This document shows, one piece after another, positions 2,868 to 45,679 of a DNA stretch of 64,000 nucleotides. The notes beneath the pieces are model-generated. The model searched no databases, was not told the DNA's origin, and saw only the letters and a list, made by a program, of their open reading frames with translations. A program made the position numbers and the translations under genes. This DNA comes from Bacilli bacterium (GTDB lineage: Bacteria; Bacillota_I; Bacilli_A; RF39; UBA660): NCBI GenBank assembly GCA_017441065.1, contig JAFSAI010000033.1, positions 2,581 through 66,580 on the forward strand, in the 5' to 3' direction. Position 1 is the stretch's first letter, and the number at the start of each line of letters is the position of its first letter.

Positions 2868-4662
2868 CTAACACACTTCCTTGTAATTCTTCATAATCCT
2901 CAATTAGTTTATCCATAAATGTCATTGTATCATCAAAAACATCAGAACTTGTTATATCAATTCCAGCAACTTTTAATGAATCTATTGGATTTTTAGTACA
3001 ACCTAATTTCAAAAACTCTAAATATTTATCTCGAATTGTTTTATCTCCTTCATAAATCGCATTAGCAATTTTTACTGCCACAGTAAATCCAGTTGCATAT
3101 TGATACACATAAAAATTCATATAAAAATGTGGTATTCTTTCCCATTCGTATTTGATTTCTTCATCAATTATAACATTTTCTCCAAAATATAGTTTATTTA
3201 AATCGTAATATTTTTCACACATATTTTGACTAGTTAGGATTCCGCCTTGTTCAGCATATTCATGAATAAACAATTCAAATTCAGCAAACATAGTTTGACG
3301 ATAAATTGTAGATTTATATTTTTGTAATAAATCATCGATAATTTTGATTTTTTCTTTTTTTGATTTAGTATTATCAAGTAAATACCTACATAATAGAATT
3401 TCGTTTACTTGACTTGCAACTTCTGCCACAAAAATACTATAACCATAATCTTGATAATTTTGATATTTGCAAGCATAGTAATAATGCATTGCATGTCCAA
3501 GTTCATGAGCTAGTGTTGAAATATCATTAATCGTTCCTTCATAACTCATTAAAACATATGGATGTACTGAATAACAAGAAGTACAATAAGCGCCACCTCT
3601 TTTTCCTTCATTATTACATGAATCAATCCAGCCTTCATCAAATGATTTTTTTATATCATTTAAATAAGTTTCTCCTAATGGTTCTACTGCTTTTAGCACT
3701 AATTTTTTCGCATCATCAAAATTATATTTTTTAGAAAAACCAACATCAATATCAGCATATGTATCATATACATGTAATTCATCTAAACCTAGCAACTTTT
3801 TCTTTAAATCCCAATACTTATATAAAGATTTCAAATTTTTATGTACAGATTCAATTAAATTAACATATACTTTTGGATCTATTTCATTCGCAAATAATGA
3901 TGCTTCTAAACTATTATTAAATTTTCTAAGTTTTGCATTAACTACGTTTTTATTAACTTCGCTTCTAAGTATTGTTGCAAGTGTAGTTTTAAAATTCGCA
4001 TAAGTTTTATATAATGTTTCAAACGCAGATTTTCTAACCATTTTGTCACTATGTCTAATATAAACTGAATAATTACTTTCAGTAAGTTCTACTTCTTTGC
4101 CATCTACAACAATATTCCCAAATTTAAAATCACTATCGGTAAGAGCACCCATTATTTCATCTGGAGCATCCATTAAATTTGACAATGATGATAGGCAAGC
4201 TTCAACTTCACTACTTAAAATGTGTTCTTTATTTCTAAAAATATGTTTTAAATTTCTTTCATATTCTTTTAATTTATCACAAGATTTAATATAGTTTTCA
4301 ATCTTAGAATATTCACTTTGTAATAATTCAGGAACTATATAAGATGTTGCTTCTAAATATTTTGTATAAACATTTTTAGCTTTACCAAATAATTCTTGAT
4401 AATTAGTATCTAAAGTATCTGCATCATTATTAATATGTGCATAAATAAAAGCTTTTTCTATTCTTTTAGATATTTCTGTATCTAATTCTAATAAATTTAG
4501 CAAACTATTTGCACTTTCTAAAATTTTTCCTTTATAGTTTTCAAATTTATTTAATTCTTTCTCTATTTCTTTTAATTCATTTCCGCATTCTGTATCACTA
4601 GCATACAAATCTTTTACATTCCATTTATATTTAATATCAAAATCAGTTCTTTTCTTTGCCAT
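2857..4662 (-). CDS. pepF: Oligoendopeptidase F, M3B family metallopeptidase
   Basis: 601 aa with HELGHAMH zinc-binding HExxH motif and overall PepF-like length and composition. Overlaps the dnaJ start by 11 nt. Confidence 0.8.
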
Positions 4663-4720
4663 AAATCCCTTTCTAACTAAAAGTTAGGCTCTAGAAACCT
4701 AGAGCCTTAAATTTCTTTTA

Positions 4721-6538
4721 TTATTTTTCTTCAAATGCAGCTTCTTCTACATTATCATCTTTTTTAGATGTTTCTGTAGTTGTTTCTGAATTAGAATTTT
4801 CTGGATTTACATTTTGATAAACTTTAGCTGCTAAATCCATTGCTACTTTTGATAGTTCTTCAGTTTTTTCTTTTATTTTATCTATATCACTACCTGCAAG
4901 TAATTCTTTTAATTCTTTAATTAATTCTTCAGCTTTTTCTTTATCTTTAGAATCAACTTTATCTCCTAAATCTTCTAAAGCTTTTTCAGTTTGGAATACC
5001 ATTGAATCAGCATTATTTCTAACTTCTGCTTCATTCTTTTTCTTTTCGTCTGCTTCTTTATTAGCTTCTGCTTCTTTTACCATCTTTTCAATTTCATCAT
5101 CAGAAAGGTTTGTGCTAGATGTAATTGTGATTGATTGTTCTTTTCCAGTACCTAAGTCTTTTGCTTTAACATTAACTATACCATTAGCATCAATATCAAA
5201 TGTTACTTCAATTTGAGGTACACCTCTTTTTGCTGGAGGTAAATTTGTTAATTGGAAGTTACCTAAAGTTTTGTTATCGCTAGCCATTGGTCTTTCACCT
5301 TGTAATACATGAATATCTACTGCTGGTTGATTATCAACTGCTGTACTGAACACTTGACTCTTACTTGTAGGAATTGTTGTATTTCTTGGAATTAATACTG
5401 TCATAACATTACCTAATGTTTCAATACCTAGAGATAATGGAGTAACATCTAATAATACGATATCATCAACTTCACCAGTTAATACTCCACCTTGAATAGC
5501 AGCACCCATAGCAACTACTTCATCTGGGTTAACACCTTTATTTGGTTCTTGTCCTAATTCTTTTTTAACTAATTCTTGAATGTAAGGAATTCTTGTTGAT
5601 CCACCAACTAAAATAACTTTATCAATATCTTTATTTGTAAGTTTAGCATCTTTAAGAGCTTTTCTTACTGGTTCCATAGTTGAATCAAATAAGTCACGAC
5701 ATAAGTCTTCAAATTTAGCTTTTGATAAGCTCATTTCCATATGTAATGGTCCTTCATCACTTTGAGCAATAAATGGTAAACTAATTTGAGCATTAGTCAT
5801 ACCAGATAAATCTTTTTTAGCCTTTTCAGCAGCATCTTTAATTCTTTGCATTGCCATTTTATCTTTAGATAAATCTAAACCATGTTCTTTTTTAAATTCA
5901 CTTACTAAATATTCTGAAACTCTTTCATCAAAGTCATCTCCACCTAAACGATTATTTCCACTTGTAGATTTAACTTCGAATACACCATCACCTAATTCAA
6001 GGATAGATACGTCAAATGTACCTCCACCTAGGTCATAAACTAAAATTGTTTGTAATTTATCTTGTTTATCTAAACCATAAGCAAGCGCAGCTGCTGTTGG
6101 TTCATTAATAATCCTTTCTACTTCAAGTCCAGCAATTTTACCAGCATTCTTTGTTGCTTGTCTTTCAGCATCGTTAAAATATGCTGGAACTGTAATAACT
6201 GCTTTTGTAACTTTTTCTCCTAAATAAGCCTCTGCATCAGCTTTTAATTTAGCTAAAATTTTTGCACTTATTTCTTCTGGAGTATATTTTTTATCGTTAG
6301 CTTCTACTCTTTCACTAGTTCCCATTTTTCTTTTAATAGATGAAATAGTATTTTTTACATTAGTTACCGCTTGTCTTTTCGCAGTTTCTCCAACTAATTC
6401 ATCATCACCTTTGAAAGCTACTACTGAAGGAGTAGTACGATTACCTTCACTATTTGGAATAACTTTTGGTTCTCCACCTTCTAATACTGATACACAACTA
6501 TTTGTTGTACCTAAATCTATACCTATAATTTTTGCCAT
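4721..6538 (-). CDS. dnaK: Chaperone DnaK (Hsp70)
   Basis: Begins [14 protein letters not shown]-like. Carries the DLGGGTFD and [11 protein letters not shown] Hsp70 signatures. Acidic C-terminus. Confidence 0.97.
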
Positions 6539-8303: not shown

Positions 8304-9560
8304 TTAATTTATTAGGAATGGATCTGTTTCTGTTCCTGTTCCACCTGTTATATGTATTGTTGATTCTAGATAGAAGACTGGCTTAACATAAGTTCCTTCA
8401 CGCAACGAACCTTCTTTGTAATAACTAGCAGGTCCTACACCGCCTAAAGTAACTACACCTATAATCCAAGAAGAAAATACTTTACCACTAGTGTAAAGCG
8501 GAGTATTTAATTCAAAATAAACTCCACCATTTACATAGGAACTAAAGTCCATTAATAGTTCGTCTACTCTAGGTGTTGTTAACACCCAACTGCCATCACA
8601 TGAACTAAAACAATTGGCTCCGCTTAAATAATAGTAATCGTGTATATACATTACTCCAACTTTGGCATTTACACTATTGGAAAAAGAATTCTCTAAAGCA
8701 TATATTTCATCTGGAGTAACATTTGCTGAATTACGATTTGAAATTTCACCATATTTCCAAATTGTATTAGAAACTTTATTATACCAAACACTACTTGTGT
8801 TCATATAATCATAATTAGAACTATTTACAAAAAGATTACTATATCCACCGCCGCTTATACCATTTAGCCCTTTAAAAATATCACTATCAGCCCACAAAGC
8901 TTTTTCTTCGGTTTTGTGCCATGCGTACGCAGTATTATTTATAGGTTCCCTTTTGATTAATTTCAATTGTCCACTTGAATTCACACCTAATATTCGATAC
9001 ATATACTTATCTGTATTGTTTGTGCACGTCGACTTATTATTAGTTCCAAAACACACATAGTTATTTACTATATCATTATTGTTACTATTACCATGATATC
9101 TATACATTTCACCTTCCATATTCGTAGTGTTTAAACCTGATGTTGGATTTCTTAGTAAACATTCAGATGCTGTTTCATCTTCATTACACCACTTAGGTAT
9201 ACTAAAATACAAATAACAATAGCTTGTATTTCCTGTATCTACTGTTGCTATATTATTTGTGCTATCATAACTAAGTACTCCATCTAACTTATTTCCATTT
9301 ATATCTATACATCCTGACATAGACTCATTATATGTATATCCACTTGTTGGCCACGTACTAGTTGTATCTTCTTTATATGTTCCGTCTTCTTGTTCTAACA
9401 TTATCGCAAACATATTTGAATTATTTATATTTAAATTTACTTCATCTAAATTTGTATTTTTATTACCATATGATTTATACATCAAAAACAATGTACAGCT
9501 TTCTATTATCACTAACACTAGTATTACTATCACACATATTTTTTTGTTAACAACTTGCAT
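8304..9560 (-). CDS. Surface-anchored protein, family member B. N-term MQVVNKK + TM, C-term ITGGTGTETDPFLIN.
   Basis: ORF track. Its first 120 codons or so are about 93% identical at the DNA level to the ORF at 20506-21645. Variable centre. Conserved blocks YICFGT, YMYRIIG and KIGLMYIHDYYY. Conserved C-terminal motif. Confidence 0.8.
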   Translation of the reverse strand: MQVVNKKICVIVILVLVIIESCTLFLMYKSYGNKNTNLDEVNLNINNSNMFAIMLEQEDGTYKEDTTSTWPTSGYTYNESMSGCIDINGNKLDGVLSYDSTNNIATVDTGNTSYCYLYFSIPKWCNEDETASECLLRNPTSGLNTTNMEGEMYRYHGNSNNNDIVNNYVCFGTNNKSTCTNNTDKYMYRILGVNSSGQLKLIKREPINNTAYAWHKTEEKALWADSDIFKGLNGISGGGYSNLFVNSSNYDYMNTSSVWYNKVSNTIWKYGEISNRNSANVTPDEIYALENSFSNSVNAKVGVMYIHDYYYLSGANCFSSCDGSWVLTTPRVDELLMDFSSYVNGGVYFELNTPLYTSGKVFSSWIIGVVTLGGVGPASYYKEGSLREGTYVKPVFYLESTIHITGGTGTETDPFLIN

Positions 9561-9584: not shown

Positions 9585-9625
9585 TAAGGTAAGTATATAT
9601 TACCCCCCCCGAAGTCAAATTTTTG
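9585..9625 (-). promoter_or_regulatory. Sigma-A-type promoter with a homopolymeric G8 tract (C8 on plus, 9603-9610) inside the -35/-10 spacer. Candidate phase-variation switch.
   Basis: Minus strand reads TTGACT-TCGGGGGGGGTAATA-TATACT, then a 5' UTR with AAGGAAGAAAG SD, then ATG at 9560. Spacer is 15 nt with G8. The same promoter occurs upstream of two paralogues with different tract lengths. Confidence 0.75.
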
Positions 9626-9858
9626 AGAAAATTTTGTTGAGAAAATCAAAAACTCTACTTACCTGTAGAGTTTGTTCACACAATTTGTTTTATTTCAATA
9701 TATTATTATAGGTGATTATATTTATGCCTTTCAAAAACAATCCAACTATATTTATTTTATTTGCAATTGGTTTAGCTATACTTATTTGCTATCAATTACT
9801 TATAACTTTCATTTTACCATTTAGATACAATATTTTTATATTAACCGTCGAAATCATA

Positions 9859-19482: not shown

Positions 19483-19686
19483 CTATCCTTTTAACTTTTC
19501 TATCATATTATTGATAAATTCAAATTCACTATCATCTAGCACTTTTAATTTATCTTCTTCTAATCTACCACCATATATATTTTCAGTTAATCGATCTTTG
19601 TATATAACATATTTTTTATTATTCTTTTCTACTTCAAATAATATATCAAAATCTCTTTCTGTACCCTTATTATTCCTTAATATCAT
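19483..19686 (-). CDS. DUF1292 (YrzB-like) small protein
   Basis: 67 aa, acidic. Lies between ruvX and mltG as in B. subtilis. Confidence 0.7.
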   Translation of the reverse strand: MILRNNKGTERDFDILFEVEKNNKKYVIYKDRLTENIYGGRLEEDKLKVLDDSEFEFINNMIEKLKG

Positions 19687-20098
19687 TTTGACACCTTTTT
19701 AAATAACTTTCTAAAATAATACATGCTGCTATACTATCTATTCTATTCTTTGTATTCCTTACATTATCATTATTTAAATGTACTATATCTTCAGCAGTTT
19801 TTGTAGTTAGTCTTTCATCAACTAATTCTACTTGGATATTTTCATTTTCTAACATACTTTTAAATTGCATACTTCTATTACCAGCAAAGCCAATACTTCC
19901 ATCCATATTTTTAGGAAGTCCTAATACCACTAACTTAATATCATAATCATTAATAATTTTTTTTAATTCATTTAATGCAGCATTATAATCTTCAAAATTA
20001 AACTTTATTACTTTTAATGGACTAACTAAAGTGTTTGTTTTATCAGTTATACTAATTCCTAAAGTTTTAGTACCTAAATCTAAACCTAAATATCTCAT
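19670..20098 (-). CDS. ruvX: Putative pre-16S rRNA nuclease / Holliday junction resolvase-like RuvX (YqgF)
   Basis: Begins MRYLGLDLGTKTLGISITD, the YqgF signature. 142 aa. Confidence 0.9.
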   Translation of the reverse strand: MRYLGLDLGTKTLGISITDKTNTLVSPLKVIKFNFEDYNAALNELKKIINDYDIKLVVLGLPKNMDGSIGFAGNRSMQFKSMLENENIQVELVDERLTTKTAEDIVHLNNDNVRNTKNRIDSIAACIILESYLKRCQNDIKE

Positions 20099-21645: not shown

Positions 21646-21659
21646 ATTCTTTCTTCCTT

Positions 21660-21712
21660 ATCTATTTTATAAGGTAAGTATATATTACCCCCCCCCGAAG
21701 TCAAATTTTTTG
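21660..21712 (-). promoter_or_regulatory. Paralogous promoter with a G9 tract (C9 on plus, 21688-21696) in the spacer
   Basis: TTGACT (plus 21699-21704 as AGTCAA), a 16-nt spacer containing G9, then TATACT (plus 21677-21682). Flanks identical to the 9585-9625 promoter. Confidence 0.75.
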
Positions 21713-21826
21713 GAATATTTTGTTATTAACTTCTAACCACAAAAAAAGAATAGATTACTATTCTTTGAATATTTTATCTACCAAATACACTTGTATATTA
21801 TTCTAACTTATAATATACTTTTCTTA

Positions 21827-21895
21827 GGAAGCGTGAATTTCACGTCGCCTGTTTAATTAGATGACGTTATTCTAATACTAGAATGACGTTTTTTA
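21827..21895 (+). ncRNA. Candidate cis-antisense small RNA, convergent with and overlapping the 3' end of the 34-aa peptide ORF
   Basis: Plus-strand promoter TTGTAT (21791-21796), 17-nt spacer, TATACT (21814-21819). Small hairpin CGTGAA-T-TTCACG. Intrinsic terminator ATTCTA-ATAC-TAGAAT + TGACGTTTTTTATTT (21868-21895) lying inside the peptide ORF's last codons. Confidence 0.35.
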
Positions 21896-21971
21896 TTTCT
21901 ATTACCAATACAATCAATAATAGCAATATTATTATTACTAATAAAAACTTGTTTAGAGTTTTTAATTTCAT
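21867..21971 (-). CDS. Small hydrophobic peptide, 34 aa (MKLKTLNKFLLVIIILLLLIVLVIEIKNVILVLE). Candidate type I toxin-like membrane peptide.
   Basis: Not in the ORF track because it is under 60 aa. Strong SD GAAGGAGGTGA 7 nt upstream of the ATG. Single TM helix with a charged tail. Extended -10 promoter (TTTACA-N17-TGaTTAAAT) about 90 nt upstream. Its own terminator lies at 21735-21760. Confidence 0.5.
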   Translation of the reverse strand: MKLKTLNKFLLVIIILLLLIVLVIEIKNVILVLE

Positions 21972-22109
21972 ACGCTCATCACCTCCTTCTCAGGACCAAT
22001 ACTACCTCCCCGTTAAGTTAGCTTTTAAGCGACGCCACATTCAACACTTCCATATTCATTTAATCACAATAGATATGTATTGTAAATTAATTTCGTATGT
22101 CATAAATCG

Positions 22110-22139
22110 ACAAAAAAATATCACTATAAAGTGATATTT
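22110..22139 (-). terminator. Rho-independent terminator after the P-loop ATPase gene
   Basis: Hairpin ATATCACT-ATAA-AGTGATAT flanked by A6 and T runs (bidirectional). Confidence 0.7.
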
Positions 22140-23853: not shown

Positions 23854-23949
23854 ATGAATAAAAAAACTAGAAAAATTCTAGTATGGGTAATGCTATTCCT
23901 TATGGTTGCATCTTTCGTAGCAAGTATTGCAATATATGCACTAGCTTAA
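23854..23949 (+). CDS. Small hydrophobic peptide, 31 aa (MNKKTRKILVWVMLFLMVASFVASIAIYALA)
   Basis: SD AAGGTGGG 8 nt upstream of the ATG. Single TM. Its 3' end overlaps the pilD stop convergently by 9 nt. Confidence 0.4.
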   Translation: MNKKTRKILVWVMLFLMVASFVASIAIYALA

Positions 23950-24711
23950 TGAAAAGAAAACCAATAAATTAGTAAACTTTTCAATGAAAACAAACATTAT
24001 AATCATTGATGATATTAAAAATGGACCAAAAGGAAGTTCATTTTTTTTATTGAAATAAAGTGTTGCCATAGCATATGGTAATGCTAAAAATGCTGCAAAC
24101 ACAAGTGATATTAAACTAAGTCTAAATCCTATTCCAGGATATCCTAAAGTTAATCCGATTAAGAAACATAATTTAATATCTCCTCCACCAAGAGATTCTC
24201 TTTTATATATTTTATCGCCTATTATTTTTATCAAATACATAACTAAAAATAAAGCTATACCATAAAGAACAGAATAAATTGTATTTGTTAATCCTACTTC
24301 AAAATATCTTATTATAATTATTAAAATACTTCCTATTACTAATGGCGAATCTAATATAATCATATATTTAAAATCACTTACAAATATTATTAATGCCACA
24401 GATATTATTATTAAGTAAATTCCTAATTTTAAAGAAATATCAAAGTACAAATAACCTACTAAGAAAAGAATTCCTGTAGCAAGTTCCATTATTAAATGTT
24501 CTTTACTAATTTTTTTACCACAGTTACGACACTTACCTAATTGAATTATATAAGATACCAAAGGTATCAATTCATACCATTTTAATTCTTTTTTACAAGA
24601 ATCACATCTACTTCTTCCTGTAATTACATTTTCTTTTAAAGGTAATCTTGTTCCTATTACTAAATAGAAGGAGCCTAAAATGGCTCCTATAATAAACACA
24701 CAAACTCCCAT
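23941..24711 (-). CDS. pilD: Prepilin peptidase (A24 family; PilD/ComC)
   Basis: N-terminal tetra-Cys (CDSCKK...CRNCGKK) zinc motif. Polytopic. GGGDIKL and catalytic Asp-containing motifs typical of A24 peptidases. Confidence 0.85.
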   Translation of the reverse strand: MGVCVFIIGAILGSFYLVIGTRLPLKENVITGRSRCDSCKKELKWYELIPLVSYIIQLGKCRNCGKKISKEHLIMELATGILFLVGYLYFDISLKLGIYLIIISVALIIFVSDFKYMIILDSPLVIGSILIIIIRYFEVGLTNTIYSVLYGIALFLVMYLIKIIGDKIYKRESLGGGDIKLCFLIGLTLGYPGIGFRLSLISLVFAAFLALPYAMATLYFNKKNELPFGPFLISSMIIMFVFIEKFTNLLVFFSLS

Positions 24712-24724
24712 TTTTTTAATCCCC

Positions 24725-26299
24725 CTACATTACTTGTTCATACATTCCGAACATTGGAACAATAACAGCAATTATTATACCACCTACTACTATAGCTAAG
24801 AAACTAATAAGTATCGGTTCAATAAATGATTTTAAATTATTTACTACATTACGATGTAATCCTTGATAGTATTCACTAACCTTTTGCATCATATTATCAA
24901 GTTCACCAGTTGATTCACCAGTTACAATCATGAAATAGGCAACATCAGGTACTGCCCAGTGATCTTTGAATGCTTCGCTGATTTTTTCACCTTTAACTAT
25001 ATTATTAATTGTTCTATATAATATAGATTTATAAATTTCATTATTTGTAATTTTACTTAAAATATCAATACTTTCTGTAATAAATACGTTATTTCTTAAA
25101 AGAGATGCAAATGTTTTTGTAAATATGGCTAATTCATTATAAATGATAATGTCTTTTACAACAGGTATTTTCATCATCATTGTTTGCATACTTCTTCTAA
25201 ATGCTTTTACATTTTTATAAGCAACAATTAATACTATTACTGCTATTACTATTAGTAATAAGATTGTAAAGATATTGTTTTGTAAGAAGTGACTTAAATT
25301 AATTATGAATGCCGTAATACCATTTAATTCAATATTATTCTTTTCATATATTTCAACGAATTTTGGAATTATAAATACTAGGATAAATGCTACAACTGCA
25401 AAGGCAAAAATACTAATTATCAATGGATATGTCATTGCACTTTTCATTTGTTTCTTAGTTTCATCAACTTCAGTATAATAGTTAGCCATATCTTCTAGTG
25501 TTTCAATTAAAGTACCACTAGCTTCTGCAGCTTTAATCATATTAATAAGAAGCGGTGGGAACATATTTCCTTGTTTTTCTAAAGCAGATGAGAAAGACGC
25601 TCCTAATGTAAGTTCATAAGACATTGATTGGAATGCTCTGGCTTTACTTTTCTTACTAGCCATTTGTTTTGACAATATTTTAACTGCATCGTTTAAAGTG
25701 ATTCCAGCTTTTAAATATGTAGATAATTGAGTTAACCAGAATATTAATTCTTTAGTAGACATTTTTGGACTACCAAATGAAGATTCTTTAAATAAGAAAT
25801 TAATCATTGGGCTAGTTTTAATACTATATACTGTATAACCTTCATTTACTAAGAATGAATTTATATCTAATTTAGATAAACCATTCATAGTACCAGTAAT
25901 TATTTTTCCTTGTTTATCTCTAACTTTAAAATAATAAACATTAACTTCTTTACTACGAGTCGCTCCTGTAGTTTGTAAATCTTGTAATAATGCTTGATAT
26001 TCTTGTTCTAATTTTGCTAATGTTTTAGCACTATAATTATAAACTTTTTCTTTTTTCTTTTTATTATCGTAACCATCATCTTCATGAGGTCCTAAAGCTT
26101 CTTTAGTTCTTTTATATGCTTTATCTAATTTCCAACTAGTACTATTATATAAATATACAAACAAATCATAAGTACAAGCTTTTAATCCAATAAAAGCATA
26201 AGAAAAAATTGAAAATATTACTAAACAAATATTTTTTAAAAACTCTAAAAATAAAACATACCACACTTTTTTTTCGTTAGGTGTTGCAACATTATCCAT
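24725..26299 (-). CDS. pilC: Type II secretion / type IV pilus platform protein (GspF/PilC/ComGB family) with an extra N-terminal extension
   Basis: Two GspF-type repeats and 3 TM segments (about 400 aa C-terminal), preceded by an about 130-aa N-terminal region containing a TM. Adjacent to pilD. Confidence 0.8.
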   Translation of the reverse strand: MDNVATPNEKKVWYVLFLEFLKNICLVIFSIFSYAFIGLKACTYDLFVYLYNSTSWKLDKAYKRTKEALGPHEDDGYDNKKKKEKVYNYSAKTLAKLEQEYQALLQDLQTTGATRSKEVNVYYFKVRDKQGKIITGTMNGLSKLDINSFLVNEGYTVYSIKTSPMINFLFKESSFGSPKMSTKELIFWLTQLSTYLKAGITLNDAVKILSKQMASKKSKARAFQSMSYELTLGASFSSALEKQGNMFPPLLINMIKAAEASGTLIETLEDMANYYTEVDETKKQMKSAMTYPLIISIFAFAVVAFILVFIIPKFVEIYEKNNIELNGITAFIINLSHFLQNNIFTILLLIVIAVIVLIVAYKNVKAFRRSMQTMMMKIPVVKDIIIYNELAIFTKTFASLLRNNVFITESIDILSKITNNEIYKSILYRTINNIVKGEKISEAFKDHWAVPDVAYFMIVTGESTGELDNMMQKVSEYYQGLHRNVVNNLKSFIEPILISFLAIVVGGIIIAVIVPMFGMYEQVM

Positions 26300-43644: not shown

Positions 43645-45378
43645 TTAACTTATTATATATGGGTCAGTTGATGTTCCGGTTCCGCTTGTAATTTTTATAG
43701 ATGATTCTAAATAAAAGAATACTCGAAACCAATTAGAAGAAGTAGTAAGACTATAACTTGCGATTGTTCCATAACTAGGGTCCATATAATATGCAAAAGT
43801 TGTACCATTTTTTACTATCATCCACTCTTTCATACCAGCACCAATACCCCGAAACATCCACACGTTTTTTAATGCACTGTTTGCACCAGGATTTCCTCCT
43901 ATATAAGCATATAAATAATCACTTGGATACCCTAATCCTATTTTCGCAGATGTGCTATTTCCCAAATTGATTTCAGCATCGTAGGAATCATCTCCAGAAT
44001 ACATATCAACAATCGAAAAAGCAATTTGACCATATTTCCAATTAACTAGTGCTATTTTACTATCCCATCCACTTGGTACATAGGTAGTATTTGTTAGAAA
44101 TGAACTTCCATTTATTGCTAGATATATCGAAGATGCAGACCATGCAATATCACTTCTTGAGGAGTGCCATTTTAAACCACTCATTTGTTTTTGTTTAATT
44201 AATTTTAACTTACCAGATGAATCAACACCAATTATTCGATACATATATACTTCTAGATTACTTGTACATGTTGATTTGTCTGTTGTTCCAAAACATATGT
44301 AATTATTATCAACTACATCACCAGTTCCTTGGTATCTATACATATCACCATATTCAGCTGTTGAGATATTAGCTATTTCTTTTAATTTACTACTTCCATA
44401 TTTACTTGACATACATGTTCCCATATTTGTATATGATGAACATAATGTGTATAAACTTGGTACTGGTTTGGCGATGCTTATAGCACTTGTTCTATGTCCT
44501 ATGTTTCCTGCTTTATCTTTAACATGAATATAATAATTACCTGTTGCTGTTACTGCTGTTGTACTTGTAAATGTTGTTCCACTTACTTCATCCCATATAC
44601 ATCCGCTTGTTGATGTACTACTTGTATTTACACATACATGTGTTACTCCACTTCCTGTTTCTGTTACTATTACATTTGCTGTTCCTGCTCCACTATCACT
44701 TGCACTTGTTATTACTGGTGATACGGTATCAAGGAACACACTGTCACTTACTACTGGTGATATGTTTTCTGCTGCATCTCTTATAAATGCATATCTTGTA
44801 TTACTTCCTTGTGTGCTTATTGTATAACTTGGTGTTACTGAATTACCTGTTGTGCTTACCCAATTACAACTACTTGAATTGTTTTCTGGATTTATACAAT
44901 AACTTGTTATGTCATTATCTGTCCATGATAGGTATGCTGTTGTATTTGTTGTATTTATATATTCTGGATTAGTACTTCCTCCTAGATAAAATGTAAATGT
45001 TTGTGGTGGCACTTTATCTAAATCAAAGTACAAATAACAGAATAATGTTTTATTACTACTAACTGTTATTTTATTATTGTTATATGATATTACATCACTT
45101 ACTACTTTTCCTTTATTATCTGTACAATTACTTCTTTCTTCATTAAAGTAATATTTTAATCCTATGGGATAGTATTCACTATCTGTATATTCCTCGTATT
45201 CTCCATTTTTATTCTCTACATACATTGAAAACATTTCTTTATTTACTTTATTTTCTTCTTTTATTTCTTTTATATCTTTATTACCATATGATTTGACTGA
45301 TAAATATGTAAACACACATTCTATTACTACTAATAAAGTTATCGTTATTATCCAAAGTTTTTTGTTAACAACTCTCAT
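43645..45378 (-). CDS. Surface-anchored protein, family member E, with an inserted Ser/Thr-rich module. C-term ITSGTGTSTDPYIIS.
   Basis: N-term MRVVNKK + TM. An about 200-aa S/T-rich insertion (VSPVITSASDSGAGTANVIVTETGSGVTHVCVNTSSTSTSG...). Conserved blocks YICFGT, VYMYRIIG and KIGLGYPSDYLYAY. Confidence 0.8.
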   Translation of the reverse strand: MRVVNKKLWIITITLLVVIECVFTYLSVKSYGNKDIKEIKEENKVNKEMFSMYVENKNGEYEEYTDSEYYPIGLKYYFNEERSNCTDNKGKVVSDVISYNNNKITVSSNKTLFCYLYFDLDKVPPQTFTFYLGGSTNPEYINTTNTTAYLSWTDNDITSYCINPENNSSSCNWVSTTGNSVTPSYTISTQGSNTRYAFIRDAAENISPVVSDSVFLDTVSPVITSASDSGAGTANVIVTETGSGVTHVCVNTSSTSTSGCIWDEVSGTTFTSTTAVTATGNYYIHVKDKAGNIGHRTSAISIAKPVPSLYTLCSSYTNMGTCMSSKYGSSKLKEIANISTAEYGDMYRYQGTGDVVDNNYICFGTTDKSTCTSNLEVYMYRIIGVDSSGKLKLIKQKQMSGLKWHSSRSDIAWSASSIYLAINGSSFLTNTTYVPSGWDSKIALVNWKYGQIAFSIVDMYSGDDSYDAEINLGNSTSAKIGLGYPSDYLYAYIGGNPGANSALKNVWMFRGIGAGMKEWMIVKNGTTFAYYMDPSYGTIASYSLTTSSNWFRVFFYLESSIKITSGTGTSTDPYIIS

Positions 45379-45394
45379 ATTATCTTACCCTTCT

Positions 45395-45445
45395 TTTATT
45401 TATAAGGTAAGTATATATTACCCCCCCCGAAGTCAAATTTTTTCA
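45395..45445 (-). promoter_or_regulatory. Paralogous promoter with a G8 tract (C8 on plus, 45421-45428) in the spacer
   Basis: TTGACT (plus 45431-45436), 15-nt spacer, TATACT (plus 45410-45415). Flanks identical to the other two copies. Confidence 0.75.
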
Positions 45446-45679
45446 AAAAAATTGTTGAAAAGATTATGGGCTAAAATCACAAAGTAAAAATAATGGCCAA
45501 GCCATTATTTTTGGAACAAAAGAAAACATGAACTGTTTGTTAGTTTTTGGAGGTATATTTCAAAGTGGATTTGTTAAATTAATAACTAAGTGTAAATGTA
45601 ACCAAATATTCTATATTTATAAAAAATCCCCTTCACTCATAAGATATGCGAAATATCCTAAAGTGAAAGGGCTAATTAA

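Follow-up and report, generated by a model that had tools for sequence, protein, structure and literature searches.

Poly-G tract and putative promoter

Does a run of nine guanines, set in the spacer of a putative promoter in a genome of uncultured gut Bacilli, act as a switch for the gene that follows it, and what kind of protein would then be switched? Judging from the sequence, the element in the 64-kb window (the whole stretch of DNA that was analysed, 64,000 nucleotides) is probably a slipped-strand phase-variation switch of promoter strength, of the classical kind and seen for the first time in this lineage. The tract is C9 on the plus strand and G9 on the minus strand, which is the strand of the gene (Table 1), and the plus strand at 21668–21711 reads TATAAGGTAAGTATATATTA-C9-GAAGTCAAATTTTT, the right flank also being given in a shorter form as GAAGTCAAATTTTTT. 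Two C8 copies in the window have flanks identical to those of the C9 copy, and a search of the window for the 15-mer flank GGTAAGTATATATTA gave exactly three matches. The original prediction, made from the letters of this DNA, had placed a G9 tract with a 16-nt spacer at 21660–21712 and had described the same flanks with one C more than at 9603–9610; both statements were confirmed, the second from the two sequences themselves.

The window has a G+C content of 26% (21–30%). A census of runs on its plus strand gave six of C5, none of C6 or C7, two of C8 and one of C9, with no G run of 5 or more, and no other G/C run of 6 or more was found anywhere in the 64 kb besides the three tracts, a sign that the tract itself is being maintained. 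At 7 or more, G/C runs were confined to the three tract sites (7 overlapping matches); shuffling the window gave a mean of 0.21 matches to this pattern, and none of 100 shuffles reached 7. The three tracts are thus far outside the background expected for sequence of 26% G+C, and chance is excluded.

The assignment of the promoter is putative and is based on consensus and conservation. TTGACT-16 nt-TATACT (21704..21677, minus strand) ranked first in the promoter scan of the region, with 10 of 12 matches, and stands 31 nt upstream of the ATG of a gene for a 379-aa protein. On the sense strand the three copies share the layout AAAAATTTGACT-TC-G(8/9)-TAATA-TATACT-TACCTTATAAA...AAGGAAG-N7-ATG and, when aligned on the gene strand, differ in nothing but tract length over a stretch that extends from some 10 nt upstream of the -35 box to some 15 nt past the -10 box. 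The spacer length is n+7 for a tract of n guanines, giving 16 nt for G9 and 15 nt for the G8 of the other two window copies. All three tracts sit 5' of minus-strand genes (379, 418 and 577 aa), and each copy has a terminator-like hairpin on the sense strand 40–80 nt upstream; this layout suggests that each gene is a transcription unit in its own right, and the hairpin upstream of the G9 copy is placed where it would insulate the promoter against read-through. A search of the window with Rfam found one tRNA and nothing near the element.

Table 1. Features of the G9 element, its two paralogous copies and their surroundings in the 64-kb window.
Feature	Position	Strand	Evidence or remark
G9 homopolymer tract (variable element; C9 on the plus strand)	21688..21696	-	Sequence; G8 at the same locus in contig L001
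-35 box TTGACT	21699..21704	-	Promoter scan; TTGACA or TTGACT in all related promoters
16-nt spacer, TC + G9 + TAATA	21683..21698	-	Sequence and promoter scan
-10 box TATACT	21677..21682	-	Promoter scan; TATAAT in related MAG species
Conserved A/T-rich block with AACAA motif, upstream of -35	21705..21730	-	Alignment across copies and species
A/T-rich block, copy 1	9619..9645	-	
A/T-rich block, copy 3	45437..45462	-	
Terminator-like hairpin AAAGAATAG-TAAT-CTATTCTTT + T run, about 37 nt upstream of -35	21741..21766	-	Inverted-repeat search
Terminator-like hairpin, copy 1	9650..9673	-	
Terminator-like hairpin, copy 3	45486..45512	-	
Ribosome-binding site AAGGAAG, 7 nt before ATG	21653..21659	-	Read from the sequence
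Putatively controlled gene, 379 aa	20506..21645	-	ORF, family alignment, AF2, fold matches
Paralogous promoter copy 1, TTGACT-TC-G8-TAATA-TATACT, 15-nt spacer, tract 9603–9610	9592..9618	-	Would drive the 418-aa gene 8304–9560
Paralogous promoter copy 3, same element with G8, tract 45421–45428	45410..45436	-	Would drive the 577-aa gene 43645–45378

The A/T-rich block marks the upstream edge of homology among the paralogues. Its motif is (T)TAACAACA/CAACAA with an A/T run after it and is found 10–25 nt upstream of the -35 box in every species listed; the block could be an UP-element-like sequence or a factor site. The hairpin of the G9 copy, GAAGAATAGTAATCTATTC with a T run, also precedes paralogues at other chromosomal loci (L093, L094 and L095), about 80–105 nt upstream of the ATG, which suggests that the upstream terminator was duplicated as part of the cassette.

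The same promoter design in related gut Bacilli

A peptide-pattern scan of species-representative genomes yielded 60 loci in uncultured Bacilli MAGs, about 25 of them from Lapin-017__bin4, and a census by regular expression over the upstream regions of the fetched loci and the window identified 52 promoters of the form TTGAC[AT]-[CT]C-Gn-TA[AT]TA-TATA[AC]T. These share one design (-35 box, 2 nt, Gn, 5 nt, -10 box) in which n ranges from 6 to 10 and is mostly 8, and in nearly all of the 52 the spacer is n+7, a few variants departing from this by an extra or interrupting base. The Lapin-017 and Lapin-016 MAGs match the consensus perfectly at both boxes (TTGACA/TATAAT); the Lapin-001 and Lapin-005 MAGs do so at the -10 box and have TTGACT at the -35 box. 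Dozens of paralogues have this design upstream, in no fewer than four related MAG species, and the position of the tract is unchanged throughout, the proteins from related MAGs being only 31–38% identical to the 379-aa protein. This conservation of the boxes and of the n+7 geometry across species, which is the main evidence in our analysis, argues for a working promoter and for selection on the tract itself. The lineage is represented by at least four MAG species from gut metagenomes, and the record names (XIEF21, Lapin) point to ruminant and rabbit sources.

The poly-G promoter goes only with those members that carry the M[QR]VVNKK leader and not with the whole protein family. Of the leader-carrying genes, 35 have 60 nt or more of sequence on the upstream side, and every one of these has a tract of at least six G; family members with other leaders (P0011, MYRRS..., and P0030, MNGLSK...) have ordinary promoters without a tract, which shows that the tract is not a property of the entire protein family.

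Several deviating copies were also seen. L075 (1136–1165) has A+G5 with a spacer of 11, and L080 (1137–1170) has CCA+G7; both look interrupted or decayed and are possibly locked copies. At L083 (943–975) a T-to-G substitution makes a G9 while the spacer stays at 15. Scans of genome-contig and metagenome-contig collections with the exact flanks gave no match, these collections evidently being without this organism; contigs from JGI samples (e.g. L009), reached through the proteins that they encode, do carry the element. The sole match to a generalised pattern in metagenome contigs (L082) was rejected as unrelated, high-G+C sequence.

Tract-length variation between assemblies and among paralogues

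The exact 379-aa protein is present on three further contigs, with G8 on L001 and with G9, as in the window, on L002 and L003, although the latter two, at 100% identity to the window, may not sample the strain independently. In 7,141 aligned bases L001 departs from the window at two substituted positions and at a single gap, which is that of the tract. A second locus, P0028, behaves in the same way: L094 has G8 and L095 G9, and this is the sole internal difference in 2,640 bases, four mismatches besides the tract falling in the first 20 nt of the contig end. At both loci, then, length is polymorphic at one and the same position within conserved flanks. G9 versus G8 was found at the P0014 and P0040 loci too, the longer version being at a contig end in each case (L013, L020) and carrying little weight; of the four orthologous length differences in total, these two are regarded as unreliable. 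Three loci (copy 1, copy 3 and P0004) were invariant in 2–4 assemblies each, copy 3 being G8 in all four assemblies of the locus.

Among the paralogues of single genomes the spread is wider. The Lapin-017 promoters have G6 once, G7 three times, G8 seven times, G9 three times and G10 once, and the 45 nt downstream of their -10 boxes differ by only about 4 nt per pair; the 14 Lapin-001 promoters comprise seven of G8, six of G9 and one interrupted A+G7 (L080). Only G8 and G9 (spacers of 15 and 16 nt) were seen in the window's own species, and G10 was seen once, in another species (L043). That the tract is unstable, which had been proposed from the difference between copies, is supported by both kinds of comparison (G8 versus G9 at the same locus between assemblies, G6 to G10 among the paralogues of one genome), and tract length across samples, suggested at the time as a check, was not invariant at either the window locus or the P0028 locus.

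Poly-G runs are error-prone in Illumina data, and part of the tract variation could be technical. For 23 of the 58 leader-bearing genes a contig end lies no more than 60 nt from the ATG, in most cases within the tract or directly after it. Such breaks could reflect read-level heterogeneity of the tract and fit equally with a repeat shared among paralogues or with trouble in sequencing poly-G. Contigs that start in the tract or a few bases past it are L013, L017, L019, L020, L031, L032, L039, L045, L068, L079 and L084, and those also breaking near it are L005, L014, L021, L035, L038, L042, L081 and L085.

These technical points bear on the first alternative, which we consider unlikely, namely that the promoter is fixed, that its G-rich spacer is a constant feature (a factor site or a stiff spacer that tunes strength), and that the differences in length are errors or neutral drift. 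The tight clustering of lengths at 8–9 is in keeping with a constant spacer, yet near-identical paralogous promoters run from G6 to G10 in a single assembly, which is hard to blame on error, and a factor site would not tolerate five different lengths. Assemblers do struggle at the tract, as the many broken contigs attest, and half of the orthologous differences are at contig ends; the other two, however, are inside long contigs from independent assemblies, where each is the sole indel in 2.6–7.1 kb, and A/T runs of 8 or more in the same locus alignments, few as they are, show no change in length. A 1-bp change in the spacer between near-consensus boxes is known, moreover, to alter promoter strength, as at porA (PMC3899988).

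Proposed mechanism of switching

In the reading that we prefer, phase variation of promoter strength by slipped-strand mispairing, a sigma-70-type promoter would hold a hypermutable poly-G tract in its spacer. A repeat of the length needed for slippage (about 7 or more for a homopolymer; here G9 in a spacer of 16 nt) does lie between recognisable -35 and -10 boxes. Slippage of the polymerase in replication would gain or lose one G and so shift the TTGACT-TATACT distance in 1-bp steps, to 15 with G8, 16 with G9 and 17 with G10, and the downstream gene would move back and forth at random among low, intermediate and high transcription. The usual optimum for the -35/-10 spacing is 17 +/- 1, from which G10 would be expected to be strongest, G9 intermediate and G8 weak. 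The G9 copy, at 16 nt and one slip from the canonical 17, is accordingly predicted to be more active, or nearer to ON, than the G8 copies, and given the two lengths seen in the window's own species G9 may be the full ON state. Most copies have G8, as would be expected if the majority of members were switched off in most cells and the assemblies reflected the commonest state. Each paralogue would carry its own cassette of terminator, promoter, 5' UTR and leader and would switch independently, and the population would be a shifting mosaic of the family members displayed.

It is very unlikely that the tract acts after initiation, as part of the 5' UTR of a transcript from a promoter farther upstream, with effects on RNA structure or stability. 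Between the tract and the weaker promoter-like matches that do exist upstream (21837..21810 and 21955..21928) there is a terminator-like hairpin, and it is the boxes flanking the tract that give the best match in the region and are perfect consensus in relatives, the sequence farther upstream not being conserved. An invertible promoter (inverton), a recombination cassette or gene conversion among paralogues, with the poly-G tract as an incidental feature, is barely credible: promoter, leader and N-terminal domain are near-identical among dispersed paralogues, suggesting recombination or gene conversion, and a short AACAA/GTTAAC-like motif is found both upstream of the -35 box and in codons 3–5, but the inverted-repeat search detected no flanking pair that all three copies have (they share no hairpins but local terminator-like stems), the promoter has a single orientation relative to the gene in all assemblies and at every locus, on which grounds the inverton class was rejected, and gene conversion, which may homogenise the cassette, leaves the 1-nt changes at otherwise identical loci unexplained.

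The downstream gene and its protein family

The 379-aa protein has a predicted membrane helix at residues 6–32, a beta domain at about 51–120 and a C-type-lectin-like domain (abbreviated CTLD) at about 125–360, and its C-terminal end is GTGTSTDPYIIN; the AF2 model has a pLDDT of 87.6. Neither Pfam nor NCBIfam had a convincing match to any of the three window proteins, and a profile search of PDB sequences gave just a chance-level match (1lcs, E = 0.016). Comparison of the predicted structure with known folds matched it to CTLDs, including the N-terminal domain of the Thomasclavelia ramosa IgA peptidase (9QA6) and the C-terminal domain of Legionella Lcl (8Q4E). There were 2,165 homologues at E <= 0.001, nearly all of them metagenomic or from 'Bacilli bacterium' MAGs, and at least 10 paralogues are encoded in the same MAG (locus tags IJN13_*). 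The original prediction had spoken of three paralogues, a number that holds for the window and falls well short of the genome as a whole; the three window copies lie among housekeeping genes, at distances of 12–24 kb from one another.

Alignment of 38 members shows the leader (M-Q/R-V-V-N-K-K and a hydrophobic helix) and the next 100 or so residues to be nearly identical among paralogues; the remaining 260 or so diverge, and all members end in G-T/S-x-x-D/N-P-F/Y. The product is most likely a membrane-anchored, surface-exposed lectin-like protein, and its predicted helix and CTLD ectodomain, together with its place in a large and diversified paralogous family, mark it by prediction as a surface or host-interaction determinant.

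The family shows further variations in architecture. In the 577-aa paralogue the small beta domain and the lectin-like domain are separated by some 200 inserted residues rich in Ser/Thr (alignment columns 158–345). P0103, P0107 and P0110 are annotated as BspA-type leucine-rich-repeat proteins (PF03382), and their first 120 or so residues are 92% identical to those of the 379-aa protein, from which it appears that the leader and N-terminal module has been combined with unrelated ectodomains. PF07963 (N_methyl) is present in one distant member of the family. This, together with prepilin peptidase and PilC-like genes 2–3 kb away, led us to consider a type IV pilin, a reading that was not adopted, the leader being without the G|F(T/S)L(I/V)E cleavage motif and having its Glu about 20 residues in.

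Comparison with known phase-variable systems

Most of the switches known to be driven by repeats come from pathogens (Neisseria, Haemophilus, Campylobacter and the mycoplasmas), and poly-C promoters occur at opc and fetA of Neisseria meningitidis. The gut-commensal examples of phase variation found in our literature search were mostly DNA inversions, in Bacteroides and clostridia, and the open-access text that it covered gave no report of this protein family or of promoter switches by simple sequence repeats (SSR) in this lineage. The mechanism proposed here is a known one; what is new is its occurrence in an uncultured gut Bacilli lineage, on a large and previously undescribed lectin-like family.

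At porA of N. meningitidis a poly-G tract lies in the -35/-10 spacer and the transcript level tracks the number of G residues, and H. influenzae hifA/hifB, B. pertussis and M. hyorhinis offer similar cases (PMC3899988). Our element resembles porA in placing a G homopolymer of similar length (about 8–11) in the sigma-70 spacer of a surface-protein gene. Whereas porA is a single gene of a Gram-negative pathogen and encodes an outer-membrane porin, the element described here is found across a large paralogous family in uncultured, low-G+C gut Bacilli, its product is a predicted membrane-anchored lectin-like protein, and the switch is proposed from sequence. In Vmm of Mycoplasma mycoides a TA repeat is located in the promoter spacer (PMC10502178), and there, as at hifA/hifB, the spacer repeat sets the ON or OFF state (PMC10502178, PMC3899988). 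These systems have a dinucleotide repeat that changes in 2-bp steps at a single locus each, in contrast to the 1-bp steps at many loci here.

The closest analogue in overall logic is vlp of Mycoplasma hyorhinis, where each vlp promoter has a poly-A tract, the genes are transcription units of their own that switch independently, and a conserved promoter and leader precede a divergent exposed part (PMC10502178). The likeness consists in multiple paralogues, each with a homopolymer promoter and a conserved 5' module. The tract here is poly-G rather than poly-A, and, unlike the vlp lipoproteins, the leaders have no lipobox as judged by eye against L-[ASTVI]-[GAS]-C, ending in ...LVIIESC or ...VVIEC with Glu at -2 or -1. 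The vlp products have tandem-repeat C-terminal regions and their genes are clustered at one locus, whereas here a folded CTLD without tandem repeats is encoded by dispersed genes; membership of the vlp type of variable lipoprotein was rejected on all three counts (lipobox, tandem repeats and gene clustering). As for the proteins that share the fold, the window protein differs from the Thomasclavelia ramosa IgA peptidase (9QA6) and Legionella Lcl (8Q4E) in that it has no metallopeptidase domain and is only 19% identical.

Functional switches would make a population of these bacteria a mixture of surface types, with a bearing on immune (IgA) evasion, adhesion and phage resistance. Notable points are the number of switches, possibly above 25 in a single small genome, the setting in a gut commensal, and the structural tie to a domain of an IgA peptidase. 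There are consequences for data handling as well: metagenome assemblies break or are mis-called at such tracts, and breaks were observed here, while tract lengths could be read directly from existing metagenomic reads and are a possible record of selection in different hosts. A bolder interpretation, which we offer tentatively and would not call probable, is that the cassette of terminator, poly-G promoter, 5' UTR, membrane-anchor leader and small beta domain is a portable, switchable display module that has been copied by recombination or gene conversion in front of varied ectodomains (CTLDs related to the IgA peptidase and BspA-type leucine-rich repeats). There would then be from 10 to more than 25 independent switches, and variation in the style of the mycoplasmas would have arisen independently in an uncultured gut commensal of the Bacilli, possibly aimed at host IgA or glycans.

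Neighbouring sequence

Upstream of the cassette is a non-coding gap of 375 nt (window 21760–22139) for which Rfam gave no match; it holds a perfect palindrome, CGTGAAATTCACG (at about 21832–21844), and a plus-strand terminator-like hairpin with a 12-bp stem at 21863–21890. A prepilin peptidase gene (Peptidase_A24 in Pfam) lies 2–3 kb upstream, this and the next gene being at window 23941–24711 and 24725–26299, both on the minus strand, and a GspF/PilC-like gene, a label read from the translation by eye, is likewise 2–3 kb upstream. In L001 the RuvX gene is in two pieces of 59 and 78 aa (4548–4976), as against one ORF of 142 aa in the window (19670–20098); the split may result from a stop introduced by one of the two SNPs, or from an assembly error.
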